64,000 nucleotides of DNA from Pseudobdellovibrionaceae bacterium (GCA_023898385.1 CP060220.1:76993-140992); one strand, 5' to 3'. Numbered from the stretch's first letter, positions 2,940 through 58,074 are shown. A program made the numbers and translations. The notes: generated by a model not told the origin, from the letters alone.

Positions 2940-3156
2940 TTTTTACCTCCAAAGGCGAAGCAGACTTGAAAATTTTCAATACAACGAAGGGAGTCTAGCG
3001 ACCGCACGGGGGAGTGGTCAAAACAGATTACAAAAACACTCGCCCTGACCAGTGGCGTTGGCGAAACTGGACGTGGTGGTTATTCGCCGCAGGAGGTGAC
3101 AGACAGTAAGTTGAGAGCCAATAGAAAATAGGCTACAGCGAGCTCCTTGCGTCTAT

Positions 3157-4209: not shown

Positions 4210-4290
4210 TTCCTATCCCTCCGGAATTCCCAAAACCCGGTTTTATAGCAAACTCTTGCGCATCATGCCATTTGATTTTTGCAATGCGGC

Positions 4291-5166: not shown

Positions 5167-5274
5167 AAGCAAGTGGACATATCACAGAAACACGCCATGG
5201 CAATGGCCCTTTGAGAAGTTGATTTCCATCCAATTTAACGCTATACGCCAGAGCCTTACCACGCGAGGCGATCA

Positions 5275-20441: not shown

Positions 20442-22910
20442 ATGTCGCCCTACAAAAATGGAACGTTACCTTGGTTGTCTGCGTGGCTTGGCGGCTTCTT
20501 GATGACTTTAATGCTTGTTGGCTGCCAGCTGGCGGACAACCGCATAAAGGGCGCAATAGCATTGTCTGGTAGTGGCGCGGGCCCAGGCGAAATTACGGGG
20601 ATTAGTTCGTCTAACGTCCTCAATGATCATGGGCAAATTTCATGGCCAGTGGTCGTGGGTGCGACAGGCTACCTGGCCAGCTATCAAATGGGGGATACGG
20701 CTCCCGCAAGCTGCGATGAAGGTCTACAGGTGCCGGCCCAAAATATGTCAGGAACAACGTTAACTTTGTTAAATTTAAGCCCCGGCACGAATTACTCATT
20801 GCGTATTTGTGCTTTGGGGGTGTCTTTTGAGGGCGAATTCACTGTCCTGACACTCAAAGAATTAACAAAAGAAGTGGTCTATCCAGGCAACAGCAATTGG
20901 AATGACTATGTTCGAAATAACGGAACATATCTACTTGATGCCGACAACACACCTTGTGATGGCACGGAAACGGGCGACTATCTCTCCGAATTGTGTATTC
21001 ACGTTGCCGAGGTCAATAAATTTGCGGCCCCAGACCTGGGCTCCGATTGCACCGGCGTAAGTGCTTATGATTCAGCAGGAGTCTTTGATTGGCAATGTGA
21101 TGATACAGTAGATCCAGTAGTGGTTTACTCTACGGGATTGAAAAATGGCAAAGGCCTCGCCGATCTGGTCGGTGTCACAGAGTTCTTACCTCTTCGTGTT
21201 GTGATTGAAAAATCAGGTAGTGCCACTCACTCGTCATCGCTCGCCACCTGGTGGAGCAATTCTATTGCACCGATCACTGCGGGTAACCTCACGTTATCAA
21301 ATGCAGGAACAATTTATGTTTTGGAACAAGACCTCACGGCCAACGGATTTACGGTCACGGCTGACAAAGTGGGCTTTGTAGTAAAATCAGGGGCCACTCT
21401 AGAAAGTGATCTTAACAAATCACTCATTGCCGACTCATCTGCCAAGTTTTTATGGATAGAAGGGAGCTTTGGCGAGACGGTAGGCACCAGCGTTCTAGAT
21501 ATTCGGTCAAAGTACAGCCAAATCAGAAATGTTTCCATTGAGGAGGGTGATGCGATCCAGGCATTTTTGGCCCAGTCATCAGAATATTTGAAAATCCAAA
21601 ATCTTCGCATAAAAGGCACCGCTTCAGTCTACAAGTGTGTTTCCCTTACGCTAGGATCGTGGCTTGAGGCTTCATACGTGGCAACGTATGGATGTCAAAT
21701 TGGGTTCTCTTCAGGGTTTAATTCGAATTCAAGATTTAATAATCTCAAAATATTGGGGCACTCTGATGATGGCATTGGCCTTTCGGGTACCGGAAACAAT
21801 ATTTTTGTAAACACCCAGGTGGCTTACTCAAATCGGGCCATTACCGGAGATCTAACGAATAACGTGTTTTATAATACTGTGGTTTCTAACTCCCCTTATT
21901 GCGTCTATATGACTGGCGGCTCGATGACATTTGTTAATACTTTATTGGTCAACTGTAACCAGGCCAGGTTTACTCTGTACACTCATCATTCTTCGTTTTT
22001 AAATACGGTGATTGCTTCGCAATCGGCTTCCCAAGGGCACTACTTTTATAGAGTTCACGACAACGTATTTCACAATCTTGTAACGGCGAACAATGATGGA
22101 TGGCAAATTGGACATACGTCATCTAACAATTTTGTGTTTTCAAATTTGGCCATGGATTTGCCTTTTAATGGATACGACGGCGATAACTGGAAGTTTACCG
22201 GGAACTTGTTGTTAACCCCATCGGTCACTTGCAGTTACTCAGGTGCCGGTACAAATTATGGACTACAAAATGGCACTTGCGCCAATGTTGGAACAAGTGA
22301 TGCCGTTCATCGAACTGGTCTGGATTTTAGCGACACCTTTGTTGGCAGGGTTTTCGACGACAGCATAACTCAGTTTGATATTTCAAGTGATGTGGACTTT
22401 ACCAATATCGGAGCCATTTCAAATTTAAACGATTTTGATACCGTTATTGACTTTGAGCATCCGTTGAGAGCCTGGGGCCGGAGTTCTACAAATTGGCGCG
22501 ACAGTGCTGCACGGGGGGCATGTGCGACGGGAGGTACAATGTGCGCTGTGTACGACTGGAGGTTGAAATCCACCGACACTGTGTTCAGAAACACGTCCCT
22601 AGACGGCCTCAATCAAAATGACCCCTTCATCAGTGGAAGCGCCTGTCCCGCAGCCGTAGATGGCAACTTAACGTTGACCGACTCTAATGCAAATGGGGCC
22701 AACACCTATCTGAGAAACGCCGTAGAAATAATGAACGATAAAATCGGCGACGACGACGGTCTGTGTGAGTCAAGTGAGGCCTGTATCTACTCACCCAACT
22801 TCGGCGTCTATCAGGGTCACGGCGACTACAAGGCCAACGGCACCTGCACCTTTCAAAACGGCACCGTTTCGGGCGTCACGATGTATACATACCCTAGCAA
22901 TGGTATCTAG
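20442..22910 (+). CDS. Large lipoprotein with Fn3-like domain and parallel beta-helix-like repeats
   Basis: GGAGG precedes the ATG. Lipobox LMLVGC. An Fn3-like segment (ISWPVVVGATGYLASY...NYSLRICAL). Many ~22-aa N/G/V-rich repeats (NNIFVNT, NNVFYNTVVSN, SSFLNTVIAS, DNVFHNLVTAN). Confidence 0.65.
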   Translation: MSPYKNGTLPWLSAWLGGFLMTLMLVGCQLADNRIKGAIALSGSGAGPGEITGISSSNVLNDHGQISWPVVVGATGYLASYQMGDTAPASCDEGLQVPAQNMSGTTLTLLNLSPGTNYSLRICALGVSFEGEFTVLTLKELTKEVVYPGNSNWNDYVRNNGTYLLDADNTPCDGTETGDYLSELCIHVAEVNKFAAPDLGSDCTGVSAYDSAGVFDWQCDDTVDPVVVYSTGLKNGKGLADLVGVTEFLPLRVVIEKSGSATHSSSLATWWSNSIAPITAGNLTLSNAGTIYVLEQDLTANGFTVTADKVGFVVKSGATLESDLNKSLIADSSAKFLWIEGSFGETVGTSVLDIRSKYSQIRNVSIEEGDAIQAFLAQSSEYLKIQNLRIKGTASVYKCVSLTLGSWLEASYVATYGCQIGFSSGFNSNSRFNNLKILGHSDDGIGLSGTGNNIFVNTQVAYSNRAITGDLTNNVFYNTVVSNSPYCVYMTGGSMTFVNTLLVNCNQARFTLYTHHSSFLNTVIASQSASQGHYFYRVHDNVFHNLVTANNDGWQIGHTSSNNFVFSNLAMDLPFNGYDGDNWKFTGNLLLTPSVTCSYSGAGTNYGLQNGTCANVGTSDAVHRTGLDFSDTFVGRVFDDSITQFDISSDVDFTNIGAISNLNDFDTVIDFEHPLRAWGRSSTNWRDSAARGACATGGTMCAVYDWRLKSTDTVFRNTSLDGLNQNDPFISGSACPAAVDGNLTLTDSNANGANTYLRNAVEIMNDKIGDDDGLCESSEACIYSPNFGVYQGHGDYKANGTCTFQNGTVSGVTMYTYPSNGI

Positions 22911-34599: not shown

Positions 34600-35778
34600 T
34601 TAGTCAATTCTCTGACCATAGTAATAGCAAGGTGAATTTCGGCAAACATTTCTGCAGGCGTGCCAGTTGGGTTGTTGCCACTCTTCAGGGTCGTTCCAAT
34701 TGTAGCTACGCCAGGCCGCTTCGCAGTAATCCACCACGTTTGGCGAGCGGCCGCCCATGCAGCAATTAGTTCGTTCCCCTTGCGAGGTGTTCTTGCCGTA
34801 AATGCCGCCATCGCCAGTGTGATCGGGTTTCCATTGGGCTGTACAAACAACATTGTTGCCCACCAATCCCTCGACGTCACCAGATGCAGACTCGCGCATA
34901 CCTACGCCGTCTTTAAAGGGGTGGCATCGATCGGACTTTGAAAATGGTAGTACATTAGAGCCAGTGGCGCAGACCACCTGCTTGGTCAATTTATTCTTTC
35001 CTTCGATGTAGAAGTAAAATTGTTGTGGACCCGATTCGCCATCCACCCATCTCTGAGCGTAGAACTCTTGAGTTTTATCGGCGCTCTCACAGTTAGCGAG
35101 GTAGCGTTCACTCTTGCCTTGCTGAGCGGCTGTGGGTGATAGGCCAGTCCCCGAGCCTGCGCCGGGTGCCGGTTGGGGCGCTTCTGCGGCCGGTGGCACA
35201 CAACTGTCATTGGCTCCGTTGTAGTCAGCTCCTAGGGCTTTGCAAATGTCCTCTTGAGCATGGTTTCCCGCACATGCCGTGATTTCATCTGATGAATCAT
35301 TGCTCACCACATAGGTCGAAAACTGCAGGGATCGGGTGCTGAGGTTTTCGTTTCCAGTTAATTTTGGCGAATAATCGATGCGAACTCGGTAGGCTGTATG
35401 ACCATCATATGAATTCACGTTCGCGGCATCGACAATAGATAAATGGCCAATTTTCACTCCATCAAGAGATGCACCGGCCTTGGCCACTTGCCTTTCAGAA
35501 TTTTGTAAAGTCAGTTCAATGGGTAGCCCCTCTTCAGGGATCTCAGAAAGATCCAAAGTTTGACCGATCAACCCCGACGAACACAGGGACGGGCTAGAGA
35601 GGACCTGTTCTATTCTCGATGACAAATTGGTCGAACTGATTTTTTGACTGACTATATAACTTTGTTTTTGATACATACTGATCATGGCGGAGGCGGAACC
35701 TACCAAAATTGACAGGAGCGCGACTCCCACGATCACTTCCATAAGACTGTATCCCAATTGGGTAGGTTTAAATTTCAC
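34600..35778 (-). CDS. Pilin-like protein P3: prepilin N-terminus plus Cys-rich C-terminal module
   Basis: MKFKPTQLG/YSLMEVIVGVALLSIL is a class III signal with Glu+5. A Pro/Ala/Gly linker follows. 14 Cys by my count. Confidence 0.75.
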   Translation of the reverse strand: MKFKPTQLGYSLMEVIVGVALLSILVGSASAMISMYQKQSYIVSQKISSTNLSSRIEQVLSSPSLCSSGLIGQTLDLSEIPEEGLPIELTLQNSERQVAKAGASLDGVKIGHLSIVDAANVNSYDGHTAYRVRIDYSPKLTGNENLSTRSLQFSTYVVSNDSSDEITACAGNHAQEDICKALGADYNGANDSCVPPAAEAPQPAPGAGSGTGLSPTAAQQGKSERYLANCESADKTQEFYAQRWVDGESGPQQFYFYIEGKNKLTKQVVCATGSNVLPFSKSDRCHPFKDGVGMRESASGDVEGLVGNNVVCTAQWKPDHTGDGGIYGKNTSQGERTNCCMGGRSPNVVDYCEAAWRSYNWNDPEEWQQPNWHACRNVCRNSPCYYYGQRID

Positions 35779-36994
35779 GGACTAATACTCCTGAAGCAAA
35801 GCATTTAAAGCTGGTAAGTGAGTGCGCTGCCGCATAGTCGTTGCAGTTTGCAATACAATTATTATGATCGTCTTCAACTGTTCCTCCAGTATAAAGATCC
35901 CACTGGGAGGAGGTTCCATTGCCAAAAATTTCACAGGATTCGCCTTCGATCAAATTTCTACTCATCCATTGTATGGGCCCATCTCTATAGTTGCGATCAA
36001 TAATACTATGGCGGGAGAGTTCGCGGATCTCATTTTCACCAATAAATCGGTCCGATTGATATTTTCCTGTGCAGTTCATTATAAGTGAATTCACGTGTAC
36101 TTCGCCTTTTATCCCATCGCCTTGGGGGAGGATATAGGCATTGGCTGCATCGTGGGTGTAGCAGGCCGGCTGAGCCGCCCCAGGGGATGTAATCCAGCCA
36201 GATTCACAGGCCGATCCGCCAACAAAACCAGAGGCATAGTACCGGACAAGTCCACCGCCAGGAGTCTTTTCAGCAATGAAATCCATGCTGACATTTGCCA
36301 TGTAGTTTCTGAGTTGGCAATAAGCATACACTTTGCCAGGATCTAGGCCTTGCGGCGGCGTCGCCGGAGGCAGAGGCGTGGGTTCACTGGTGGCATCTAC
36401 ACACGCCGTCGCTGCCGAAGGATCAAAGTCTTTGTTAATGGCTGCGCAATACGAGACGGCAGAAGAGTAACTGAGACACTTGGTCATCTTATTTGTCATT
36501 TTGTCTATTTCAACGATCTGTTCGATTTCAAGGGGCCTCAATGAGATAGCTCGGCCAACTTGATTTCTTACGGGTAAAAATATCGAAATTTCGCGAATCT
36601 CTTTTGCTGGGTCTTCAAATAACAACTTTCCTCTTTTTAGTGAGGCGGCTCCCAGGGAAAGACGGCCAAAGGAATCGCCTTCCTGAATCATATCGGGGCT
36701 CAACGGATTTGGTAGTTCAACGACAGCGCTGTCAGCATCGGTGGCTGGCACGATAATGTCTCGTACAGAGCCATTGCATCGAGCAACATCGGTGAGCGCA
36801 AAACTCAGCTGATGTTGAAGATTGCTTCGCTCTAACTTCAAGTCGGCAACAAAGGCCGAATGAGTCAAGTAGTTGACGTGCGCAGAAAGCCCCACCATAG
36901 TAAGTGACAATAAAAACATGACAAACAAAACAACTGTCAATACGCTGCCACGAGATTTCTTAGTCTGATCGATGAGGTCGTAGGAATTTATCAT
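35768..36994 (-). CDS. Pilin-like protein P2: PilX-like N-terminus plus Cys-rich C-terminal module
   Basis: ATG 36994 forms an ATGA overlap with the P1 stop. SRGSVLTVVLFVMFLLSLTMVGL has no Glu+5. The linker is Pro-rich. 12 Cys by my count. Confidence 0.7.
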   Translation of the reverse strand: MINSYDLIDQTKKSRGSVLTVVLFVMFLLSLTMVGLSAHVNYLTHSAFVADLKLERSNLQHQLSFALTDVARCNGSVRDIIVPATDADSAVVELPNPLSPDMIQEGDSFGRLSLGAASLKRGKLLFEDPAKEIREISIFLPVRNQVGRAISLRPLEIEQIVEIDKMTNKMTKCLSYSSAVSYCAAINKDFDPSAATACVDATSEPTPLPPATPPQGLDPGKVYAYCQLRNYMANVSMDFIAEKTPGGGLVRYYASGFVGGSACESGWITSPGAAQPACYTHDAANAYILPQGDGIKGEVHVNSLIMNCTGKYQSDRFIGENEIRELSRHSIIDRNYRDGPIQWMSRNLIEGESCEIFGNGTSSQWDLYTGGTVEDDHNNCIANCNDYAAAHSLTSFKCFASGVLVREI

Positions 36995-38127
36995 TGTATC
37001 CAAGCCCCACCTGGAATGCTGATTCGCGTTCCATTGTATGTGCAAACATCAACGCGTCCGTCGTAGACCCGTTTGTGTTTACAGAATGCGATGCAGGATG
37101 CGAGATCTTCAACATAAAAATCAAATGTAGGTGACACGCCGGCATGATCAGAAAGAACACAGTTGCTGGACGCTTGCGTGCCTGTTTTCTGGTGCATGGG
37201 CATTGAGATTGAGCTTAAAATCATCTGTGTCCACGGCATTTCATTGCCTAATTCAACCTCAATTTGACAATCTGATGTACTGACCTGCCCCAATGGCGTA
37301 TAAGAAGCTGCCAGCGTAGACGGATCAATCTTAGCCTTGAAGTCACCACAAAATGTTTTACGATTGGTATAATCCTGGTACCAGCCGCTGTCGCACGCGA
37401 TAATATTGGGATCACGAGCATTTCGGAAGACGATTCTAAAATGGCCATTCAAGTTGTGAAGGGGGTCGCCCTCCATGGTGACAGAACGCAAAAAGTACTC
37501 TCGCAAACCATCATCACTTTTACAGTAGCCGGTATTAAATATGTTTTTGACCGGACCAAGTTCGGCACTTTCTTCGGCACAAGAGGGGTCTGTGCAGATC
37601 TCGCCATCGTTGATTTGACCGTCATCAAGACAGTCTTCAATCAAATGTGTGGAGTTATTAACAACAAGGCCCTTGTAAAAATCAATTGTTTTAAAAGGGC
37701 GAAGTTGTGATTTTCGACTTTTCGCTTTCACTTCAAATTTTACCGACACAGCTGTGACCGCACTCGTCTCGGACAATTTTTTTAAACCCGTGGTTTTAAG
37801 AGATGTGATTTCAAGCATGCCGTAATGGCTGCCCGTGGTTAAAGAGCCGAAACCAGGCAGCTGTAGGTTAAGGGGCACAGAGGCTGTCTCTTCGGGGTCA
37901 AGTTCGACGTTACTAAATAGGCGGGTGCAGGACCTTTTTTGCGAAAGGGCATTCAAAAGCGTGAGTTGTAATTCACTGTGTTCCATTTGCCCTTCCATAT
38001 GAGAAACGTGCTGACCCATATAGGTGGGAAGACCAAAAGCCATGGATAGCATCATCGACGTGATGGCTATCGTCACCGTGAGCTCGGTTAAGCTAAATCC
38101 TGAAATAGAAGATATACGTCCGCCCAT
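36991..38127 (-). CDS. Pilin-like protein P1: prepilin N-terminus plus Cys-rich C-terminal module
   Basis: MGGRISSISG/FSLTELTVTIAITSMML is a class III signal with Glu+5. 12 Cys by my count. Confidence 0.75.
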   Translation of the reverse strand: MGGRISSISGFSLTELTVTIAITSMMLSMAFGLPTYMGQHVSHMEGQMEHSELQLTLLNALSQKRSCTRLFSNVELDPEETASVPLNLQLPGFGSLTTGSHYGMLEITSLKTTGLKKLSETSAVTAVSVKFEVKAKSRKSQLRPFKTIDFYKGLVVNNSTHLIEDCLDDGQINDGEICTDPSCAEESAELGPVKNIFNTGYCKSDDGLREYFLRSVTMEGDPLHNLNGHFRIVFRNARDPNIIACDSGWYQDYTNRKTFCGDFKAKIDPSTLAASYTPLGQVSTSDCQIEVELGNEMPWTQMILSSISMPMHQKTGTQASSNCVLSDHAGVSPTFDFYVEDLASCIAFCKHKRVYDGRVDVCTYNGTRISIPGGAWIQ

Positions 38128-38180
38128 ATTCCTTGATTCATCCCTTCAATAAATGTATCGGAAAAAATCAAAGAAACTTT

Positions 38181-38198
38181 AGCCCTAGGTCATAAAAT
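38181..38198. repeat. 18-bp direct repeat (putative target-site duplication), left copy
   Basis: AGCCCTAGGTCATAAAAT, identical to 41002-41019. Confidence 0.85.
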
Positions 38199-38218
38199 GT
38201 TAAAAAATTTTAGAAATG

Positions 38219-39572
38219 CGAATTGCCTCAAAATGAGAGTTACTAGTTATTTTAAGGGGTTACTATCGAGACTTTGGTATTGTGAAAAACAGCTCCGCTG
38301 CCTCATAATAACGGTTACCACAACTGTGATTGCTAAGGCATTGAAACAACGGAGGAAACCACCGATGGATCGCGGAGCTGTAAATCAATATTTAACACTT
38401 TTGAGACAGAGTTACCAAGTTACTTCTTACCAAGAAAAGCAAAAAATTATTGATGTGGTTGGTCTTAATTTTGGTTGGCATAGAAAATCTGTGATTAGGG
38501 CTTTGAATCGGCCTGATAGTGAACGAAAGAGCCACCCTGGTCGAAAGCGGAAGTACTCAGCGGGAGCCATAATCCATCTGAAAAAGGTATGGCTGAAGAT
38601 GGATCAAATGTGTTCTAAACGGATGCGGGCGGCACTGCCACGGTGGTTAAAAGATTATAACCACTGCAGCGATGCGATAAAGGAAGAATTGATGAGCATG
38701 GGGGCAAGTACGATAGACCGCTACTTGCGAAGCTACAAAGCTCAACTTAAGCGAAAAAACAATACTGGCACGAGGCCTGGCAGTGACTACTTTAAAAACA
38801 GGATCCCGATTAAGCCGCTGGATCACAACGTCCATGAAGCTGGGGTCGTTGAGGCGGATACAGTCGCTCATTGTGGCGACTCGTTAAGTGGAGTCTTTGC
38901 CTGGAGTCTGACCTTAACAGATGTTAAGACGGGTTGGACAGAAGTGCGAGCCCAATGGGGTAAGTCAGGCATAGGAGTGGTCAACGGTATTACAAATATC
39001 GAAGAAAATCTTCCGTTCAAAATTAAAGAATTTTGCTGCGACAATGGTTCTGAGTTCTTGAATCACCAGCTGCTCAACTATATGTCTCAACTTGGCCAGG
39101 CACACAAGATAAAGCGTGGTCGTCCATACCGCAAGAACGATCAGTGCCATGTTGAGCAGAAGAACTACACTCATGTACGGCAGCTTTTTGGTTACCATAG
39201 AATAGACCAAAAAGAACTCATAGAGTTAATGAACGACATTTACGCTAATGAGTGGTCACAGTTGCAAAACTATTTTATGCCGCAGATGAAGTTAATCAGA
39301 AAGACAAGAATAGGTTCAAAGTACAAGCGAGAATACTCAAAACCAATGACACCCTATGACCGAATCATGGCTGAACCAACCATATCCTCAGAAGTGAAAG
39401 CTCGTCTAAAGCGGCAATACGACAACCTCAATCCCTTTGCGTTAAAGGAAGCTCTCGACAGAAAGGTCAATCGTTTCTTCAAGCTAGTGAACTTCAAACC
39501 CATAAGGAACGCATCATGACCAGACGAAATGACAGAATGCAGGAAAGTAACTCAAGTAAATGGGTCAATATG
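38219..39572 (+). mobile_element. IS element 'A' (rve/DDE, ISNCY-like) nested in the left end of IS 'B'
   Basis: Imperfect ~26-bp IRs: CGAATTGCCTCAAAATGAGAGTTACT, and the reverse complement of the right end CATATTGACCCATTTACTTGAGTTACT. AATG occurs on both flanks (38215-38218 and 39573-39576). Confidence 0.55.
38365..39519 (+). CDS. DDE (rve) transposase of IS 'A'
   Basis: GGAGGA precedes ATG 38365. ADTVAHCGDS...CDNGSEF...RPYRKNDQCHVEQKN shows DDE integrase-core spacing. Confidence 0.8.
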   Translation: MDRGAVNQYLTLLRQSYQVTSYQEKQKIIDVVGLNFGWHRKSVIRALNRPDSERKSHPGRKRKYSAGAIIHLKKVWLKMDQMCSKRMRAALPRWLKDYNHCSDAIKEELMSMGASTIDRYLRSYKAQLKRKNNTGTRPGSDYFKNRIPIKPLDHNVHEAGVVEADTVAHCGDSLSGVFAWSLTLTDVKTGWTEVRAQWGKSGIGVVNGITNIEENLPFKIKEFCCDNGSEFLNHQLLNYMSQLGQAHKIKRGRPYRKNDQCHVEQKNYTHVRQLFGYHRIDQKELIELMNDIYANEWSQLQNYFMPQMKLIRKTRIGSKYKREYSKPMTPYDRIMAEPTISSEVKARLKRQYDNLNPFALKEALDRKVNRFFKLVNFKPIRNAS

Positions 39573-39620
39573 AATGTCCGGTTTTTTTGGCCTTTTCCCA
39601 AGTTGAAATGTCCCCTTTTC

Positions 39621-40880
39621 TCAGTCTGACACATTGTGCGTGTTTCGTTTTGAGCCATTCTTAAATTCTGTTAGTTTTTTACACTCAATCACCTCATGTG
39701 GGATTGCCTCTCTGGTTTTTTCGTGAACCACGCTCAAGGTGCCATCGGTGTGGATGCTGACCTCCACTTTTGCCTTTGCCCAGTTGGCTCTGTGAGCGGC
39801 TGGCAGGAGTTGGATTTTATAAAGGCCCTTTCGAGCAATGATGTTATCTGGCCGTACTGTACTTGTGTATTTAGCGCAGAGGATGTTCCGTAAGCACTTG
39901 GGGTCAAAGAGCTCTACAAAGGCTTTCCTGGGGCTTTTAGGCGCCTTCCTGAAGCGCTTCCTGAAGTCAGGTAAAAACACGTCTTCGATAAATACGTTTG
40001 CAACGTCGATGTTTTTTATTTTTCGAAGCCTGAGCTCTGAGATCAGTCGATCTTGAAAAGTCCTGTTCATTCTCTCAACGCGACCCTTAGCGGGGGCCGA
40101 GTGTGCTGCTATGAACTCGACTCCCAGCTCATCAAGGGCTCTGCCGATTTGGGTGAGGACTTTTTTGTCTTCCTTTGGATCTTCGAAGTACGACTTGTGA
40201 GTACCTACCTTCACTCCTTGTCCTGAGTAGTGGAACCAACTGGCCTTGTCCGTGTAGATGGCCATAGGAAGGCCATAAGTTCTAAACACATGTTCGAGGG
40301 CCTTGAAGTTAGGCATAGTCCCGTCATGCTCAAAGAACTGTGCATAGAGCGGGTCTGAGGTGGCATCATCGACAATCACGATTAGTTGTAGCTCCTGCCC
40401 TGTGCCCAGCCAGTCGTGCGGTGATGTGTCTTGTTGCAAAAGCTCGCCGGCACTCTCACGTCTCGGGCGCTCTTTGCGGTGCTTCCTGGGACGATGCATT
40501 TTCTTGTCAGTGAGGTTTCCACTGCGCAGTATTTTTCGCACCGACTCAACGCTGATCTTTATTCCCTCCACTTCATTGAGCTTCTCAGTAAAGTGAGTGA
40601 AGTTAAGATTTGCTTTCTGGTACTGATTTACCCACAAAGACTTGACCCTCTCCACCTTCTCTGGAGATATAGCGTTGTTGCTTGTACGACCGACAAGACC
40701 GTGCACAACACCTTTGGCGCCTTGAAGACGTACGAGGTCTTCAAGGCGTCGTACCTGCCTTGTTGACAACCCCAATACCTCTGCGGCTTCTTTCTGACGC
40801 ATGCGTTTATCCATCACGTCTTTTATCACTCTGAATTTTTTCACCTCTGCCCCCGTTAATCTAAGCCGTTTAGCACCCAT
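39621..40880 (-). CDS. DDE (rve) transposase of IS 'B' with N-terminal HTH
   Basis: EAAEVLGLSTRQVRRL is an HTH. QQDTSPHDWLG...VIVDDATS...IYTDKASWF...SAPAKGRVERMNRTFQDRL matches ISNCY-type transposases as I remember them. Confidence 0.8.
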   Translation of the reverse strand: MGAKRLRLTGAEVKKFRVIKDVMDKRMRQKEAAEVLGLSTRQVRRLEDLVRLQGAKGVVHGLVGRTSNNAISPEKVERVKSLWVNQYQKANLNFTHFTEKLNEVEGIKISVESVRKILRSGNLTDKKMHRPRKHRKERPRRESAGELLQQDTSPHDWLGTGQELQLIVIVDDATSDPLYAQFFEHDGTMPNFKALEHVFRTYGLPMAIYTDKASWFHYSGQGVKVGTHKSYFEDPKEDKKVLTQIGRALDELGVEFIAAHSAPAKGRVERMNRTFQDRLISELRLRKIKNIDVANVFIEDVFLPDFRKRFRKAPKSPRKAFVELFDPKCLRNILCAKYTSTVRPDNIIARKGLYKIQLLPAAHRANWAKAKVEVSIHTDGTLSVVHEKTREAIPHEVIECKKLTEFKNGSKRNTHNVSD

Positions 40881-41001
40881 TTAAGCCCCCTCATGGTGAG
40901 AGAGCTTAATAAATCACCACTAAGTCACTGTAATGACTCAATGTAGAAAAGCGGACATTTCTACTTTGTGAAAAAAGCGGACACTTTAACTTTGTCGGAA
41001 C

Positions 41002-41019
41002 AGCCCTAGGTCATAAAAT
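41002..41019. repeat. 18-bp direct repeat (putative target-site duplication), right copy
   Basis: AGCCCTAGGTCATAAAAT. Confidence 0.85.
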
Positions 41020-41047
41020 ATCGACATTTTTGGCAGAAAATGTCGAT
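41020..41047 (-). terminator. Probable putA terminator hairpin
   Basis: ATCGACATTTT-tggcag-AAAATGTCGAT, an 11-bp stem. On the minus strand it is followed by AUUUUAU. It sits 34 nt after the putA stop. Confidence 0.5.
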
Positions 41048-41080
41048 ATTTTTGGGCGTCGTGTTTCACTATGAGACGGT

Positions 41081-44000
41081 TTACGCGTCGGGGGCGAAGC
41101 CTCGGCGCATGGTGTTTTCGCAAATATTTCTGGGATGCATGAAATGCAACAAATAGTCGGGAGACCCCGTTTTGCTGCCAAGGCCAGACATTTTAAACCC
41201 TCCGAAGGGGTGTCGTTGCACGAGAGCTCCCGTAATGCCTCTGTTGATGTAGAGGTTGCCCACATTGAACTCCTCTTTTACCAGCTCAATGTTTGCAGGA
41301 CTTCTAGAATACACACCACCGGTGAGGCCGTATTCAACATCATTAGCCACTTGCAGGGCAGTCTCTAAGTCTTTCACCTTGATCACGGCAAGCACAGGGC
41401 CAAAGATTTCTTCTTGTGCCAAGGACGAATGGGGATCCACGTCCGTAAACACCGTGGGAGGTACAAAAAACCCTTCTTTCGGTACGTCACCTTGATAGGC
41501 AAGGGTCGCCGTGGCTTTGCTCTCCTCAATAATGCCTAAAATCTTTCGTTGGGCTTCTTCGTCGATCACCGGTCCCATAAAGGCTGCGGGATTATCAGCT
41601 GGTAGCACGCGAATACTTTTCACCGCCTCGACCAGCCGTTCAACAAACCGATCATAAATGCTTTCAAGTACAATCACACGACTGCAGGCAGAACACTTTT
41701 GACCCTGAAAACCAAAGGCCGAATAGACCACACCGTGTATGGCTTCGTCGAGGTCAGCATCACTATCTAGGATGATGGCATTTTTTCCGCCCATTTCAAT
41801 AATGCATCTTTTGACGTGTCGCTGGCCTAAAACAATCTGTCCGGCCTTATTCACAATGTGCAGTCCTACGGCCTTACTGCCGGTAAAAGCGATGAGATCC
41901 ACATCTTTGTGCCCAGTGAGGTATTCACCCACCTCTTCGCCAATACCTGGCAAATAATTAACGACGCCGGCAGGACAGCCGGCTTCTTTTAAAGCACTCA
42001 TCAGCAGCGATGCCGTCACAGAGCTTTGTTCCGCCGGCTTCATGATCACGGTATTGCCTGTAACCACCGCCGCTGTGACCATTCCGGTTAAAATCGCCAG
42101 AGGGAAATTCCATGGCGCAATAACTAGAGTCACGCCAATGGGTTGATAGTGAAGCCAGTTGCTCTCACCGGGCACTGAGCCCGTACGGTCGCCTTTAGCG
42201 ATTCGAAGCATTTCTGCTGCGTAGTAGCGGCAAAAATCAATGGCTTCAGCAATGTCACCATCAGCCTCTGACCATGGTTTTCCGCACTCAATCACTTGAG
42301 TGGCCGCTAAAGTGTAGCGATCTCGCTCTAAAATATCAGCCAGGTTTTTTAGCACCTGCGTGCGTGTATTCACCGACGCCTTTTTCCATGCGGTAAAGGC
42401 TGTTCGCGCTGACGTTACAGAGAGGTCGGCGTGTTCATTAGAGGCCAGACAAATTCGTCCCACCAATTGATCGGGATGAGAAGGATTATAGCGATCAATG
42501 GTTCTCTCGGTATTGATATTTTTGTGATCAATAACAAGGGGGTGGGTTTGACCCATGGTGGATTGCACATCCCTCAACGCCGTTTCCATCTTTTGCCGCT
42601 CACTGTGAATCGCAAAATCAGTAAATGGATTATTGTGAAAAGCGCGGCTTAGAGTTTTTGGTTGGTTACTTGAAGGCTCAAGACCTAGCCCCGGGTTTTG
42701 CATAAGCTTTTCTGTGGGAATGTTTTCAGAAAACTTAGAGCGCAAAAATGATTCGTTCGACGTATTTTCTAGAAGTCGCCTGACTAAGTAAGCCATTCCA
42801 GGAATCAGCTCGCCAATAGTGGCATATTCGCGAACTCGATATCCTTCATTGGCTAAAGTTTTTTTAATGGAATCGGCCATACCATAGAGCATTTGAACCT
42901 CAATGGCATTTTTCGAAAGGCCCGCTTCTTCGGCCATAATTAAAGCGGCAGAAATAGAGCGAACATTATGTGAACCAATGGCCAGCCGCACATGTTGAAT
43001 ATTGTTGATAGCAAACTGCGCACAATCTTCAAAATTTTTATCAGATTCTTTTTTATTTGTGTAAACAGGAATGGGCCAACCCTGTTGTTCGGCGTGGATA
43101 GTCTCAAAATCCCAGTAGGCGCCTTTAACTAGGCGTACAGTTACTGCTGTGCCGCGCTCTTTAGCAAATGTGGCAAGCTCATGCAGGTCGGCAAGGGAGT
43201 CTCGTAGGTAGGCTTGAATAACAATTCCAAAATGCGGGTAGTCTCGAAGTTCAGGTTCAAGGAGCAATTTCTTGAATACGGCAAGGGTCAGGTCTTTATG
43301 ATCATATTGTTCCATGTCCACATTGACGAAAACAAAATTCTCTTTGGCCAAAAGGAGCAACGGGCGCAGGCGATCAGCGAGAGTGTTAACAGTTTCATCC
43401 CAGGCCTTGGCGTTGATTTGTGAATACAACGAAGTCAGCTTCACTGACACATTCACTTTTGGTATGGGGCCGCGATCATCTTCGTCAAGAAGTGAGTGAT
43501 GCGACCAGCTTTTCGCATCTTTGACCAAGCCAACAAGTAGCTCCCGATAGCGCGTTTGATATTCAAGAGCTTCTTTTTCAGAAAGAGTCGCTTCTCCCAA
43601 GAGATCGGCTGTGAAACATAAGTTTTGTTTTCGGGCCTTTTTTAATTTAGGCAAGGCTTCTTCAGGAGTTTCTCCAGTGATAAACATTTTTGCCATTTGG
43701 ACAATGTTCTTTTTGATGGCCCTTGATAGTAACCCTGGGGCCAGTGAGCTGACGCCCATTCCAAAATTAAACACGGGTGGAAGTTCTCCGCCATTTTCGG
43801 CAAAGTATTCTTTTAAATGTCTTGTGACCTCGGCGCCTGAATTGAGGTAGGGAAACACATCGACAAATCGAAACATGTTGGTCTTAAATTCCACATTCTT
43901 CATGGACCAATCCATAATGCGGCCGTACCACCAGTCGCTATTGAATATGGAGGGCCCTGATTGCTCGCCCATTTTTGAAAAAATCAGTTGGCCTTTTTCA

Positions 44001-44098
44001 AGGACCTTACTTTCAAATAAATGAGTGTGTTCTGGTGATGACATGTGATTGTTAGACATAGGCGTGAGACTCCCCGTGGTTGATGGCGTTAGATCCAT
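41081..44098 (-). CDS. putA: Bifunctional proline dehydrogenase / L-glutamate-gamma-semialdehyde dehydrogenase
   Basis: About 1005 aa. The N-terminal half is PRODH-like. The C-terminal half is an ALDH with FTGS, EMGGKNA and QGQKCSACSR motifs. GGAGG precedes ATG 44098. Confidence 0.9.
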   Translation of the reverse strand: MDLTPSTTGSLTPMSNNHMSSPEHTHLFESKVLEKGQLIFSKMGEQSGPSIFNSDWWYGRIMDWSMKNVEFKTNMFRFVDVFPYLNSGAEVTRHLKEYFAENGGELPPVFNFGMGVSSLAPGLLSRAIKKNIVQMAKMFITGETPEEALPKLKKARKQNLCFTADLLGEATLSEKEALEYQTRYRELLVGLVKDAKSWSHHSLLDEDDRGPIPKVNVSVKLTSLYSQINAKAWDETVNTLADRLRPLLLLAKENFVFVNVDMEQYDHKDLTLAVFKKLLLEPELRDYPHFGIVIQAYLRDSLADLHELATFAKERGTAVTVRLVKGAYWDFETIHAEQQGWPIPVYTNKKESDKNFEDCAQFAINNIQHVRLAIGSHNVRSISAALIMAEEAGLSKNAIEVQMLYGMADSIKKTLANEGYRVREYATIGELIPGMAYLVRRLLENTSNESFLRSKFSENIPTEKLMQNPGLGLEPSSNQPKTLSRAFHNNPFTDFAIHSERQKMETALRDVQSTMGQTHPLVIDHKNINTERTIDRYNPSHPDQLVGRICLASNEHADLSVTSARTAFTAWKKASVNTRTQVLKNLADILERDRYTLAATQVIECGKPWSEADGDIAEAIDFCRYYAAEMLRIAKGDRTGSVPGESNWLHYQPIGVTLVIAPWNFPLAILTGMVTAAVVTGNTVIMKPAEQSSVTASLLMSALKEAGCPAGVVNYLPGIGEEVGEYLTGHKDVDLIAFTGSKAVGLHIVNKAGQIVLGQRHVKRCIIEMGGKNAIILDSDADLDEAIHGVVYSAFGFQGQKCSACSRVIVLESIYDRFVERLVEAVKSIRVLPADNPAAFMGPVIDEEAQRKILGIIEESKATATLAYQGDVPKEGFFVPPTVFTDVDPHSSLAQEEIFGPVLAVIKVKDLETALQVANDVEYGLTGGVYSRSPANIELVKEEFNVGNLYINRGITGALVQRHPFGGFKMSGLGSKTGSPDYLLHFMHPRNICENTMRRGFAPDA

Positions 44099-44752
44099 GC
44101 CCAAACCTCCCTCATATGCTGAGCGGCATCGTCCTGTAATTGTGAGCTATTTAATGTCATAGGGCAGGGTCAGTGGGCAACAGCGTTTGGTGCATGGCCT
44201 GGTTTGGCGGCGCACAGCAGCAGATAACCTGTTAGGAGCATTCCAGAAAAAAGGCTGGAGGTGGGGAGCGTTCGCTCCCCCCTGGCAGTGATAGGACTTT
44301 GTAGGAACTTTCGGCTCATCGGTCACCCGGATACGGGTCAGAGCCTGGATGGTGAACTATCCCTATCGCAATTGCTGGACCAAAAAATTGGGGTCAGGCA
44401 CTGTGTCCAAATCAAATATAAGGCCCGAATACACAGACCTTTGGTGAGGTATAAGAGGGTGTTGGGGTCAAAACGACACTTTTTCTTGATGCGGCCAAAA
44501 TGCCCTTCAAAAAGTGACATTTCTGCGCGTTTTTCCTGTTGGAAATCTAGACACCAGAAATAATCAATAAAATCAATTACTTAGAATGTTGTGGCTGAGG
44601 CGGTGGAGGCTCTGCGGCTTCGAGCTAACCCCCTGTCGCAACGGCCATTTTTGGGCTCATCAAAAAAAATCAATCATATCAAGGCATTACAAGCTGGTCT
44701 CGCGGCACAACCCTTGCCTTGTTTGAAGGTAGAAGGAGGCGCTCTAGCCGTG

Positions 44753-45802: not shown

Positions 45803-47353
45803 TTAAACGCTACCGATTTTAGGGATTTTTACGGTGAGCACACCGTCTTCGTAGGTTCGTTGAATGAGCTTTTCAGCCACGGGCTGATCGAGTGGGATCT
45901 CCTCACGAAAACTCTGAAAGTTATTTGTTATAAATCGATGCCCGTCCTTTTTCACAGTGTCGTTAAACCCCCGGCTGCCGCTGACGACCACATGATCTTT
46001 TTTGACTCGTATATCAACGTTGTGGGCTTCGTGTTCGGGTACCCAGGCTCGAATTTCATAGTGAGAGGCTCTGTCAGCGAATTCTGTTTTCGGATTCTGC
46101 AGGCGATAAAACGGGTCATGATTTTTGTCAGAATATTTGCCGTAGCTTTCCATGACTTCTTGTTTTTCTTTTTGTAGCGAATCAATGAGGCGCTCGCGTT
46201 GATTTTCAATGGCTTCCCGGTTAAGAGATTGATTTTGATGGAAGCTTTTTTCAAATTCAGATTTTTGCTTGGCAAGGTCTTTTCGCTGAACGCGTTGATT
46301 TTCTTCCATTCTCTTTTGGTGGCCCTCAGTGGCATTGGCTATCTCATGTTCGTGCTGTTTGTGCATTTGCTCAAGTTTGTCTTGGTACGAGGCCTTTTGC
46401 TGCTGGGTTCTTTGGTCGTAGGTTTGTTTTTGGTAAGAGAGTTCTCGGTCGCCATCTTTGTGCACTCGGGCCACTTCGGCATCGTATTCCGTTCTTACCT
46501 TGCCAATTTGAGCACTGCCTTTAGTGCGCTCAGTTGCCAACTGCCGCTGGTTTTGTTTTTTTAAATCAGCGATCTTTTTGTCGGCTTCAGAGTACTCAAG
46601 GTCGTACTGGTGTTTTTTTTCGTCTTTCATGGAGTGGAGAGAGTCATTGTGGCGATCGCGCTCTTCGTTGTAGGTTTCGGTGTTGTCGTTTTTGAGTTGG
46701 TCAAGGCGTTGGCGGTGAGTGTCCCTCGTGTGATTGAATTCGTTAATTTGTGCCTTCTGAGCATGCTGCACCATCTTGCGATGCTCTTCACCTTTTTTTC
46801 TAAGTTCATCTCGATGTTGTTCCCGAATTTCTGTTTCTGCCTTTTTAGTGTTTTCACGAAGATCTTGTAGTTGTTTATTAGACTCTTCGCCAATGACCTT
46901 TCGTCTCACTTCTTGTTGTTTCTGAAGGTCTTGAGTGGTCTTATACTCCTGATCAAGCACTTGATTTTTGTGAATTTTGGTTTGATTAATTTGATCATCA
47001 AACTGCTGTTCAATTCGGCCCAATTCTTTTTGCATCTCAGTCTTTTGGGCCTTGGCTTGGTTTTGTAGGTTCAGAAGCTGCTGGTTGTTTACCTGGCGCT
47101 TTTGTTGAATCTCATCGCTGTAGGTGGCTTTGATGTTGTCAATTCGCTCATCGTTGGATTTTCTAATGTGATTAACGGTGGCTTCACCATGACGGCGGAG
47201 GTTTTGCTCTTCAGAATTGTATTTTTCGCGAAGCTGTTTCAACTTGTCTTCACTAGTTTCTATGAGATCTTTTTTTCGTTGGCGATAGCGATCGTTGATC
47301 TGCTTTATTTGATCATCTTGGCTGATTCGAAATTTTGAAACTTCGTTGGCCAT
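45803..47353 (-). CDS. Charged coiled-coil protein (~400 aa) with C-terminal Hsp20/alpha-crystallin domain
   Basis: The N-terminal region is rich in K/E/Q/R/D/N and has heptad character. The C-terminus YEIRAWVPEHEAHNVDIRVKKDHVVVSGSR...FQSFREEIPLDQPV...YEDGVLTVKIPK matches the ACD pattern. Confidence 0.75.
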   Translation of the reverse strand: MANEVSKFRISQDDQIKQINDRYRQRKKDLIETSEDKLKQLREKYNSEEQNLRRHGEATVNHIRKSNDERIDNIKATYSDEIQQKRQVNNQQLLNLQNQAKAQKTEMQKELGRIEQQFDDQINQTKIHKNQVLDQEYKTTQDLQKQQEVRRKVIGEESNKQLQDLRENTKKAETEIREQHRDELRKKGEEHRKMVQHAQKAQINEFNHTRDTHRQRLDQLKNDNTETYNEERDRHNDSLHSMKDEKKHQYDLEYSEADKKIADLKKQNQRQLATERTKGSAQIGKVRTEYDAEVARVHKDGDRELSYQKQTYDQRTQQQKASYQDKLEQMHKQHEHEIANATEGHQKRMEENQRVQRKDLAKQKSEFEKSFHQNQSLNREAIENQRERLIDSLQKEKQEVMESYGKYSDKNHDPFYRLQNPKTEFADRASHYEIRAWVPEHEAHNVDIRVKKDHVVVSGSRGFNDTVKKDGHRFITNNFQSFREEIPLDQPVAEKLIQRTYEDGVLTVKIPKIGSV

Positions 47354-47498
47354 CTTGGAGCCTTCCTGGGTTCCTTTTTTCTCAACTCACATCCTATGAG
47401 TTGATGGTATCTTGCTCGGAGTTGATAACTGTGCAACGCGAGACTTCCCTCTCCCTATATCATTATTGTATCAATATTTTGGGTCAGGACCCATGCGA

Positions 47499-47807
47499 CT
47501 ATGGTTCGGTTTGTGGTCCAGAACTGCTATTGTCAGCGGTGGCTGTGGGTTTTTCGCAGATGGGGGTGTACCGGGCTGGCGCGGTGTTTTCCCAGCACAT
47601 CCACGACTCGGCGTATTCAATGAGTTCACCCCGATTGAGTGGGTGATACTGGGGGTATTGAACATGGTCTAAGGTCGATAAGACAAAGCGCTCTGTCTCA
47701 AGGGTGGGGTTAAATATGCGCAACCGAAAGGCCCGGTATTCAGCGCCAGCCAGCCCCCCTGTCAGTGAAATAAAAATCAAGACTGTGACTCTGCCCAGAG
47801 ATTTCAT
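47499..47807 (-). CDS. Small secreted hypothetical protein
   Basis: Signal peptide MKSLGRVTVLIFISLTGGLAGA. 102 aa with 2 Cys. Confidence 0.5.
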   Translation of the reverse strand: MKSLGRVTVLIFISLTGGLAGAEYRAFRLRIFNPTLETERFVLSTLDHVQYPQYHPLNRGELIEYAESWMCWENTAPARYTPICEKPTATADNSSSGPQTEP

Positions 47808-47821
47808 GCATCTCTCGTCGG

Positions 47822-47850
47822 CAAAAAAAGAATGCTACTTAAGGCATTCT
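47822..47850 (-). terminator. Rho-independent terminator (minus strand)
   Basis: AGAATGC-8 nt-GCATTCT. On the minus strand it is followed by U7, from the A-run at 47823-47829. Confidence 0.7.
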
Positions 47851-48028
47851 CGATATTTTGCTAAATTGCGGTGGCCTTATGAAGATGGGTAGCTGTCAAG
47901 GTGTCGCAGAGCCCACGATCGGCCAGATTGGAGCTCTACGTGGCAAAGTGGTTTCAGGAGAGGCCACTTACTCGCCGCGAGGTTTCAGAGGTGGCCCAGC
48001 CACCTCTCGTTTGGCCCAGTCGACGACC

Positions 48029-48753: not shown

Positions 48754-49007
48754 CTGCCCTGTTGAGAATCCTACGGATCTCTTATATCAATTATGAGAAA
48801 GAAATCCCCGCAGTATCAAGCCTGAAATCTAGGAAATTTGACATACCCAGACATTGGTCCTAAAATTTAATGTGAGGTGATGTTTTTTTGTGCAAATCCC
48901 GATGAGTCATTAGTCATTAAGAATTTTCAGCTCGGTGTTTCAAAATGAGACACGATTTTCGTCGACTCAAATTGCTCAATGACATAGCTTTTAGATATGG
49001 AGATGTT

Positions 49008-49847
49008 ATGGCGAGTGAGAAACGAGCCAAGAAGAGTGAAGATATGATTGTTGTTGATGAAGAAAAAGACCTGAAGTTCTCTACGGAAGAAGAGCTCTTT
49101 GGTTATTTCGAAAAGGACGTGGTGAAGCTGGAAGAAGAATATTTTCAGCTTCGCTCCAGCAACGATCTAGATGATAAAGACTTTGCCCGCTACGAAAAGA
49201 ATCTCGTTCGCCTACTTGAAGACCCAGATGAGGTTTGGGAGGATGAGTCCTCGTTGCCAGACAAAAAGGTATTCATCTATCTTCGCGAATTTGACAGCCC
49301 TAATGAAGACGAGGCTCTTTTTCATGTGGCGGTAGCCTATATGGCGGGTGATATGCCAAGCTTCATTTATTTGCATTTTCCAACGAGAGATATTCGATTA
49401 GCCGAACATTATCAGCGCGGTGAGATTGTCTATGACCGCATTCTTGAAAATGCGTCGCCTGGGGCATTGGATGGTGACGCTCTCCTTGAGGGTGAGCCAT
49501 TGGCCAGTGGCCTTTATGAGGCCATGTTGAAGGTGCGCAGTGATCACGATATTAGAGAAGAAGAATTTAGAGAGTTTGCCCATTTGCGTGAAGAAGCCAT
49601 TGAGGAGGCCGATGAGATTTGGCGAAACAATGACTCAATGGGCAACGTGTTGGTGACGTTTATTAAAGAATTCCATGAAGAGGGGCCAGGCGCTATTTAT
49701 TATGTGGTGGTGACTTTGGAAGACACACCTTCAAATAGTCACGCATTGTTGTTTTCTTTTCCGACCACTGATGAGGGGCTTCTTGACCGCTATCGCCATG
49801 GCGAGAATCTGCAGGCCGATGAAGTGGTGCAAGAAGCCAGTCACTAA
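49008..49847 (+). CDS. Acidic hypothetical protein with an internal tandem duplication
   Basis: GGAGA precedes ATG 49008. Two ~90-aa modules share DE[VI]W...F[IL].EF...FPT.D..L...Y..GE. Confidence 0.6.
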   Translation: MASEKRAKKSEDMIVVDEEKDLKFSTEEELFGYFEKDVVKLEEEYFQLRSSNDLDDKDFARYEKNLVRLLEDPDEVWEDESSLPDKKVFIYLREFDSPNEDEALFHVAVAYMAGDMPSFIYLHFPTRDIRLAEHYQRGEIVYDRILENASPGALDGDALLEGEPLASGLYEAMLKVRSDHDIREEEFREFAHLREEAIEEADEIWRNNDSMGNVLVTFIKEFHEEGPGAIYYVVVTLEDTPSNSHALLFSFPTTDEGLLDRYRHGENLQADEVVQEASH

Positions 49848-57900: not shown

Positions 57901-58074
57901 ATTCAGCCTCCAAGACCTCTCAAGGTTAAATAAGAGCAATCTTGGTGCCGTTGCGGGGCGGGTTTAAGTCATTGATTTTAAAGGAAAATACCAGACTGAG
58001 ACAGGCCCTTTTCGGCCAATGAATAGTGGGCTGTCAAACAATTCTACAGCTTGCCTGAACTTCGATGATTTTCG

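Follow-up and report, generated by a model that had tools for sequence, protein, structure and literature searches.

Three co-encoded pilin-like proteins with cysteine-rich C-terminal modules in a Pseudobdellovibrionaceae bacterium, candidate modular minor type IV pilins

Modular pilins, in which a small pilin module is joined to an additional module, probably serve as tip-exposed carriers of functional modules (PMC8179133). In Streptococcus sanguinis, for example, PilB bears a vWA module and PilC one of the lectin type (Raynaud et al. 2021; PMC8179133), and the known tips consist of three subunits, as in GspIJK, S. sanguinis PilA-B-C, KilL-M-N and the CofB trimer (PMC8179133, PMC12075869). 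In Myxococcus, heterotrimeric, disulfide-rich minor-pilin Tips are encoded apart from the machinery (Herrou et al. 2025; PMC12075869). In Bdellovibrio bacteriovorus, the genes for the type IVa pilus (T4aP), the Tad pilus and the type II secretion system (T2SS) are dispersed over the genome and share PilD, and T4aP and T2SS have been named as candidates for first prey contact (bioRxiv 10.64898/2026.07.08.737194). Here we describe three adjacent genes, P1, P2 and P3, at positions 34600-38127 of a 64,000-nucleotide stretch of DNA (the window) from a Pseudobdellovibrionaceae bacterium (GCA_023898385.1 CP060220.1:76993-140992). By analogy, modular pilins and heterotrimeric minor-pilin tips appear to be the closest systems in function, and we favour, with modest confidence, the reading that P1, P2 and P3 belong to the modular minor pilins of the type IV class and together make up the heterotrimeric tip of a filament whose machinery is encoded elsewhere.

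All three genes lie on the minus strand. P1 (36991..38127) and P2 (35768..36994) begin with ATG and encode 378 and 408 residues, respectively; P3 (34600..35778) begins with GTG and encodes 392. An earlier note, made from the sequence of this DNA, had reported three tightly coupled genes with products of these lengths, and the open reading frames (ORFs) lie exactly where it placed them. The two overlaps that it described are likewise present: an ATGA stop/start overlap between P1 and P2 (36991..36994, minus strand), which suggests translational coupling, and an 11-nucleotide overlap between the end of P2 and the GTG start of P3 (35768..35778, minus strand). Identical gene models are given in the NCBI Prokaryotic Genome Annotation Pipeline (PGAP) annotation of the source metagenome-assembled genome (MAG), where P1 (USN47597.1) and P2 (USN47596.1) are each named 'hypothetical protein' and P3 (USN47595.1) is a 'prepilin-type N-terminal cleavage/methylation domain-containing protein'. 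The GTG start of P3 has an AGGAG 9 nucleotides upstream, and it is supported by the orthologue P0004 (see below), which begins MKFYKSISG/FSLLE. For P2, an alternative TTG start at 37045 would give a protein of 425 residues. A weak sigma-70-like sequence (TTAACA-16-TAAAGT; 38176..38203, minus strand) lies ~50 nucleotides upstream of P1 and is a candidate promoter; it matches at 9 of 12 positions, with the number of such sites in the region not above shuffled expectation.

The N-termini were examined for class III (prepilin) signals, i.e. a short hydrophilic leader of basic character, a Gly, ~20 hydrophobic residues and Glu at +5. P1 has the leader MGGRISSISG and the mature N-terminus FSLTE (MGGRISSISG/FSLTELTVTIAI), and P3 has the leader MKFKPTQLG and the mature N-terminus YSLME (MKFKPTQLG/YSLMEVIVGVAL), so that both contain all of these elements, including Glu5. 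P2 (KKSRG/SVLTV) has the Gly and the hydrophobic helix and is complete apart from Glu5, in place of which Val is found. These are the signals that had been read from the sequence at the outset: canonical ones with Glu+5 in P1 (SG/FSLTE) and P3 (LG/YSLME), which both match N_methyl and TIGR02532, and a hydrophobic N-terminus without Glu+5 in P2 (RG/SVLTV). P1 and P3 match PF07963 (N_methyl) with 19.6 and 17.3, under the gathering score of 21.2 that Pfam sets; for TIGR02532, with a cut-off of 16.3, P3 scores 17.3 and P1 16.1, 0.2 bits short. No match of P2 to PF07963 or TIGR02532 was seen in the Pfam and NCBIfam scans.

Matches of P1-P3 in the NCBIfam, Pfam and PDB searches are confined to the N-terminal ~25-55 residues, and a profile of the trio gave only weak alpha1 matches against PDB sequences. 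When the profile of the wider family to which the proteins belong (see below) was used, alpha1 of solved type IV pilins was matched, Geobacter PilA-N being best (1.8e-9), followed by PilA, MshA, PAK pilin and TcpA. The N-termini are therefore of the type IVa/T2SS class and not of the Tad/Flp class; TadE (PF07811) was matched neither by P1-P3 (Pfam, E <= 1) nor by 99 family members (E <= 0.01). It is very probable that P1, P2 and P3 are type IV pilin-class proteins.

One architecture is common to the three proteins: a ~195-residue pilin module, a low-complexity linker and a ~200-residue Cys-rich C-terminal module (C-module). The pilin module, which comprises the signal, alpha1 and a beta-sheet in P1, corresponds to residues 1-183 of P1 (37579..38127; Cys 67, 166, 178 and 183), 1-198 of P2 (36401..36994; Cys 73, 173, 183 and 198) and 1-193 of P3 (35200..35778; Cys 66, 169, 179 and 193), all on the minus strand. 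BLASTP aligned P1 with P3 (3e-4), P2 with P3 (6e-4; residues 16-262) and P1 with P2 (0.4), the alignment spanning the first 185-200 residues. The P1 pilin module also aligns to the N-module of the family, and that of P2 was taken into the family profile.

AlphaFold2 models were run with 3 sequences and with a 99-sequence family alignment. For P3 with the latter, the predicted local distance difference test (pLDDT) score was 85-97 over residues 11-200, with a helix at 12-70, antiparallel strands at 108-124, 127-140, 151-160 and 165-171, and a small Cys-stapled helix-hairpin knob closing the module. The predicted topology of the P3 N-module is that of a pilin, in that the N-terminal helix is long and packs on a sheet of four strands. 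P1 behaved in the same way at lower confidence (pLDDT 60-82 over residues 12-168). The pLDDT of P3 falls below 50 from residue 211, and because model confidence collapses at the linker, the module boundary was placed after the fourth Cys and not at ~170. A pilin-sized module of ~170 residues with a single positionally conserved Cys had been proposed in the earlier note; on both counts this needs correction, since the module extends to residue ~185-198, the linker following the fourth Cys, and contains four Cys that are conserved across the family.

A HMMER search was carried out with a profile of P1-P3 only against 1.84 billion cluster representatives, of which 377 matched at E <= 1e-3. Among the best 150 of these, all except three matched only profile positions 1 to ~190, i.e. 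the pilin module. The three full-length matches, P0004 (6.8e-23), P0005 (2.2e-21) and P0084 (7.9e-7), with scores that chance could hardly produce, are adjacent genes on one contig (locus L003) of the very divergent Bdellovibrionales MAG HKST-UBA10, which has a GC content of 35%. P0084, P0005 and P0004 follow the gene order P1-P2-P3, and the first two overlap by ATGA (L003 11194-11197). Reciprocal best matches in a 9x9 BLAST matrix were P1-P0084, P2-P0005 and P3-P0004, with ~25% identity between orthologues and conserved Cys spacing. P0005 (G/FSLLL) lacks Glu5, as P2 does, and a longer ORF of P0084 restores a pilin-type N-terminus, KA/FSAIE. The trio is therefore intact and syntenic in a second genome, with the same order and ATGA overlap, which the earlier note had proposed as a check. 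All neighbours of the HKST-UBA10 trio differ from those of P1-P3; an 823-aa lipoprotein-like gene that follows it was compared with an 822-aa ORF of the window and found to be unrelated. As for further copies, word-indexed searches for homologues of P1, of P3 and of a profile of six sequences returned only the queries themselves and P0084, a scan of GTDB genomes with P3 and P0004 found only HKST-UBA10, and two scans of Joint Genome Institute (JGI) metagenomes with C-module and P3-type patterns found none.

A low-complexity linker is found at the equivalent position in all six trio proteins of the two genomes. The linkers are Pro-rich in the genome of 47% GC, as had been noted for P2 and P3 and is seen in their sequences, and Ser/Gly/Asn-rich in that of 35% GC; this shift in composition looks like that of a flexible tether under no sequence constraint. 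In P1, a short linker and the C-module occupy residues 184-378 (36994..37578), with 8 Cys, IIACDSGW and a terminal CIAFC...C.YNG. The corresponding part of P2 consists of residues 199-408 (35771..36400), with a Pro-rich linker (SEPTPLPPATPPQG), 8 Cys, ACESGW and CIANC...C, and that of P3 of residues 194-392 (34603..35199), with a Pro/Gly-rich linker (PPAAEAPQPAPGAGSG), 10 Cys and CRNVC...CYYYG, all on the minus strand. The shared motifs reported earlier, AC[DE]SGW in P1 and P2 and a terminal CxxxC...C in all three, could be found again.

Searches of Pfam (E up to 1), NCBIfam, PHROGs and PDB sequences gave no match for the C-modules of P1-P3, in agreement with the earlier statement that the module was unrecognised. 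A C-module hidden Markov model (HMM) matched only the two trios among 190 fetched proteins. The relationship between the three C-modules is less clear. Alignment with hhalign of profiles built from orthologue pairs gave E values of 0.005, 0.19 and 0.004 with probabilities <10%. When global alignments were compared with 300 composition-preserving shuffles, z was 3.7-7.4 for orthologous pairs and 0.3-4.5, positive throughout, for the 12 cross-paralogue pairs. In all six trio proteins the Cys follow the spacing C-(37-46)-C-(12-18)-C-(26-32)-C-...-C-x3-C-(5-14)-C, with one additional Cys pair in the P3 lineage and four additional Cys in the annotated 398-aa form of P0084. The number and spacing of Cys, together with these weak statistics, suggest that the three C-modules are homologous, and we infer that they may represent a single disulfide-rich fold that has diverged while keeping four or more disulfides. 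The claim that the three proteins are paralogues accordingly holds for the N-modules, which BLASTP aligns and whose profile recovers a large family, and finds weak statistical support for the C-modules.

Recounting confirmed the Cys totals of 12, 12 and 14 for P1, P2 and P3. As annotated, all six trio proteins have an even number; P0084 counts 16 when called as a 398-aa gene and 17 when read as the longer ORF, whose leader holds the additional one. Export and disulfide bonding of the trio proteins therefore seem likely. As a whole, the observation of the earlier note was borne out, with corrections to the extent of the pilin module, the number of its conserved Cys and the paralogy of the C-modules.

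The 377 cluster representatives form a family in which the pilin module is the common part. PF07963 is matched by 71 of 99 members examined, and in these 99 no Pfam model covers the globular part. The NCBIfam matches of the family are to assorted minor pilins and pseudopilins, including GspI, GspH, GspJ and XpsI, and presumably are confined to the N-terminal helix, as in P1-P3 and in the PDB search. G/FxxxE was found in 87 of 147 members, with another residue, often Gln or Ser, at +5 in 49. An even Cys count was seen in 122 of the 147 (83%; binomial p = 8e-17), the median being 10 Cys, which fits exported, disulfide-bonded proteins. To compare the two parts of the proteins, 78 members in which 60 residues or more follow the pilin module were clustered by BLAST: the pilin modules formed one linked cluster, even without their first 30 residues, and the C-terminal regions fell into 49 clusters, 38 of them singletons. 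A few C-terminal regions contain thrombospondin type 1, Hint or glycine-rich domains. The parts that characterise a modular pilin (pilin module, linker and extra C-terminal module) can thus be recognised from the position of the linker, the break in pLDDT and the single cluster of N-modules versus the many of C-regions. Where the source names an organism, members come from Bdellovibrionales; most are from metagenome contigs. No account of the family turned up when full texts on Bdellovibrio were searched for 'minor pilin', 'pilin-like' or 'cysteine'. Of the earlier interpretation, the operon-like trio of related bimodular pilin-like proteins stands; the pilin module, on the other hand, is not restricted to this locus and belongs to a large family with a different C-terminal region in each member.

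Three tandem family members were also found at 2434-5597 of an 8.9-kb Logan contig (SRR22387816; locus L010). They encode 251 aa with G/FTLVE, 393 aa with G/FSLLS, hence no Glu5, and 404 aa with G/FSMVQ, and are flanked by CheX and by DoxX/RelA-SpoT genes. All three share one C-terminal Cys pattern, which is different from that of the P1-P3 C-module. They are closest to each other (T2-T3, 137 bits) and not to P1-P3, and position-by-position orthology with P1-P3 was ruled out on this ground. The middle gene lacks Glu5 in three of three trios, with V in P2, L in P0005 and S in P0040. Given the separate kinship of the L010 genes, a three-gene cassette with related heads and a middle subunit without Glu5 arose at least twice.

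Some further features of the family were noted. The Cys-stapled knob has the motif C-x2-LGG-x5-9-C, matched by no Pfam model, of which some members (e.g. P0009 and P0013) have two or three tandem copies. At two loci unrelated to each other, L009 (4953-8939) and L012 (4350-6716), a solitary member is immediately followed on the same strand by a gene for a subtilisin-like Peptidase_S8 (920 and 373 aa, respectively); the S8 gene of the window (56473-57939) is 18 kb from the trio. At L008 (6308-8019, minus strand), 2 kb from a solitary member, there is a run of four small genes (64, 95, 211 and 191 aa) without Pfam matches, of which the 64-aa product matches the family profile weakly (E 7e-4); this run may encode a short pilin followed by minor pilins.

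The pathway that we propose begins with synthesis of each trio protein as a prepilin with a class III signal, whose hydrophobic alpha1N helix would insert in the inner membrane. The proteins would be oxidised in the periplasm to form 6-7 disulfides, and a prepilin peptidase of the PilD type, the gene of which would lie elsewhere, would remove the leader by cutting after its Gly. The three alpha1N helices would then associate in a bundle to give a heterotrimeric priming/capping complex, with P2, which lacks Glu5, uppermost like GspK in the GspIJK tip, and with P1 and P3, which have kept it, beneath. A major pilin polymerising underneath would push the complex outward, this pilin and the machine again being encoded elsewhere. 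The three C-modules, on flexible Pro/Ser/Gly linkers, would jointly be presented at the tip of the filament and serve as a binding head, the ligand of which is likely to be a component of a surface or of the prey envelope. The pilin module would act as the conserved carrier and the C-module as the swappable effector part, a division in keeping with the wider family, in which the C-terminal regions found on one carrier are Cys-rich, number dozens and are unrelated to one another. That the trio is displayed on a filament, sits at its tip and binds a ligand is in this scheme inferred by analogy with the systems described above. As the earlier note had stated, the window contains no pilus machinery: a Pfam scan of all 49 window ORFs of at least 150 aa found no pilus/T2SS ATPase, platform, secretin or prepilin peptidase, and besides the trio no pilin-like gene of the window was detected with the family HMM or by a motif scan. 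Location of the machinery elsewhere is unremarkable, because type IV filament genes are dispersed in B. bacteriovorus and PilD is shared.

The trio resembles several described systems in part. With S. sanguinis PilB and PilC it shares a class III signal and small pilin module, a short linker and a bulky extra module, and with PilA-PilB-PilC the co-encoding of minor pilins for which a tip heterotrimer is proposed. Unlike in PilABC, all three subunits are modular, with seemingly related modules that are Cys-rich and match no known domain; the host, moreover, is a diderm Bdellovibrionota MAG. GspI-GspJ-GspK and PilV-PilW-PilX/FimU are similar in being several co-encoded minor (pseudo)pilins with a GFxxxE-type N-terminus, and GspIJK also in having one subunit without Glu5 (GspK; here P2 and its counterparts). 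In contrast to these sets, the trio proteins are much larger, are similar no further than alpha1N, and are encoded apart from any machinery or major pilin, with no PilY1-like partner nearby. Because the globular domains are without homology, the trio does not belong to the GspIJK or PilVWX families, and because a propeller domain is missing (Pfam and NCBIfam found no PilY1/PilC beta-propeller in any C-module), it is not PilY1.

The Kil Tips (KilL/KilM/KilN) of Myxococcus xanthus, also a predatory bacterium, are three-gene minor-pilin clusters apart from the machinery, with many predicted disulfides; their variable distal domains, proposed for prey recognition, and the several alternative tips per genome are a further likeness to the trio and its family. 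Unlike the trio, they are TadE/F/G-like pilins of the Tad (type IVc) pilus and only KilN has a variable domain, whereas the trio N-termini are of the type IVa/T2SS class and every subunit has a head; with an N-terminus of the wrong class, the trio is not a TadE/F/G-like Kil Tip. CofB/TcpB of type IVb pili also combine a pilin module, a flexible linker and extra C-terminal beta-rich domains in an assembly-initiating tip trimer (PMC8179133), but are homotrimers of one pilus-operon protein without sequence match to the trio. Modular pilins and heterotrimeric minor-pilin tips are concepts already described (PMC8179133, PMC12075869). New are the C-module, known from two MAG lineages only, a tip-like trio in which all three subunits bear related heads, and a large pilin-carrier family of Bdellovibrio-like bacteria with hypervariable Cys-rich C-termini and a globular part for which there is no Pfam model.

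Several observations weigh against a pilus tip and have to be set against other readings of the same proteins. Sequence similarity to GspI/J/K, PilV/W/X, FimU or ComG is absent from the globular parts, only the N-terminal helix matching, and Foldseek, run with the P3 model on PDB, returned nothing significant, not even for the well-modelled pilin module (best E 0.076), so that the assignment of the pilin fold rests on topology. The C-module had a pLDDT <45 in AlphaFold2 with 3 or 99 sequences, giving no usable fold model, and as it is so poorly modelled, the Foldseek result is uninformative for it. Three heads of ~200 residues would also have to pass through a secretin. One alternative, which we regard as unlikely, is that the trio supplies the tip or the minor pseudopilins of a T2SS or of another non-pilus type IV filament, the C-modules then engaging secreted cargo or the secretin and not external surfaces. 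The GFxxxE-type N-terminus is common to T2SS pseudopilins, the family has the NCBIfam matches to GspI, GspH, GspJ and XpsI, a single Glu5-less subunit among three co-encoded ones is the signature of GspK (PMC8179133), and B. bacteriovorus encodes a T2SS. Proteins of 378-408 aa are, however, far larger than GspI and GspJ, and the globular domains of GspI/J/K show no similarity to them; minor pseudopilins are normally found inside the gsp operon, none of which is near the trio in the window; and hypervariable heads across the family suit external ligands better than a conserved contact with a machine.

Other points against a pilus tip are that P1 and P3 score around or under the cut-offs of the curated HMMs, with no score for P2, that Ala and not Gly stands at -1 in the P1 orthologue P0084, and that most family members are solitary, the seven further loci being single genes with no pilus genes nearby. 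The pilin-like signal might serve only for export or anchoring of Cys-rich receptors or effectors that never polymerise and are anchored in the inner membrane, periplasmic or released, the tandem being due to simple gene duplication. The marginal methylation-motif scores and the solitary genes would fit, and the N-terminus of P2 could also be a simple membrane anchor or a signal for Sec. We consider this still less probable, since it is the whole pilin fold, beyond the signal, that is conserved across 377 cluster representatives, and since the conservation of position-specific orthology, gene order and loss of Glu5 in the middle gene points to an assembled hetero-oligomer. That the ORFs are chance frames or decaying pseudogenes near insertion sequences could be suspected from the two transposase-like genes that adjoin P1 and from the lack of named homologues, but is effectively refuted: the frames are intact and agree with the PGAP calls, the orthologues in the second genome keep all key Cys at ~25% identity, and a family of 377 cluster representatives exists. 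A heterotrimeric tip of modular minor pilins therefore remains the reading that we prefer, at the modest confidence given above.

Downstream of P3, 15 bp away, lies a convergent pair of genes for an RDD protein and a rhomboid protease. A functional connection of this pair to the trio was considered and dropped, as these neighbours are conserved in neither L003 nor L010, and because none of the window neighbours is conserved at the other loci, they were excluded from the system. On the upstream side of P1, two genes of transposase-like appearance (a 440-aa ORF and an ISNCY transposase) are followed by PutA. The 440-aa ORF (38197-39519, plus strand) adjoins P1 in divergent orientation and has a DDE-integrase-like look (…EADTVAH…CDNGSEF…); no Pfam or PHROG match was obtained, and its exact sequence is absent from a collection of 15 billion proteins. 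The ISNCY-family insertion sequence (39593-40973) has 29-nucleotide imperfect inverted repeats at 39593-39621 and 40945-40973 and a transposase of 419 aa (39621-40880, minus strand). This transposase is multi-copy, with further entries from the source MAG in its cluster and the exact protein on 17 contigs. Between the element and the 3' side of the minus-strand PutA gene (41081-44104), a perfect 16-nucleotide inverted repeat with a 6-nucleotide spacer (41015-41052; AAAATATCGACATTTT / AAAATGTCGATATTTT) could be a terminator-like hairpin or a protein-binding site.

Elsewhere in the window, a 447-aa protein (18119-19462, minus strand) with a weak UPF0236 match has at least 3 identical copies in the source MAG (USN47582, USN47919 and USN48646) and is found on 34 contigs overall; it is probably the product of another mobile-element gene. 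The 822-aa protein mentioned above (20442-22910, plus strand) is called 'fibronectin type III domain-containing' by NCBI and has no Pfam match at E <= 1e-4. A 516-aa protein (45803-47353, minus strand) ends in an HSP20/alpha-crystallin domain, to which ~420 Gln/Lys/Glu-rich, coiled-coil-like residues are fused; the AT skew of its region is strong (-0.335 at 46001-48000), and no tandem repeat was found. A 300-aa protein (48945-49847, plus strand) with a PBECR2 domain (phage-Barnase-EndoU-ColicinE5/D-RelE-like nuclease) may represent a module of the toxin type; the two ORFs that come next have no Pfam match.

Bdellovibrio-like predators require pili for invasion, and to our knowledge no pilus-borne recognition element is known in them. 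A conserved carrier with dozens of Cys-rich heads is the layout expected of a recognition palette, and some of the genes are arranged in three-gene, tip-like cassettes. It is conceivable, although rather doubtful, that Bdellovibrionota hold a large repertoire of carrier pilins with hypervariable disulfide-rich heads as interchangeable type IVa-class tips, in which the heterotrimeric head of the three-gene cassettes would set the prey or surface that is gripped; if this were true, it would be the type IVa counterpart of the Myxococcus Kil Tips. The trio family also supports the published suspicion that modular pilins are under-counted, their extra modules being without database signatures (PMC8179133). 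Resting as it does on uncultured genomes, an unmodelled head and functional analogy, the trio may offer a lead on how predatory bacteria recognise their prey or the surfaces to which they attach.

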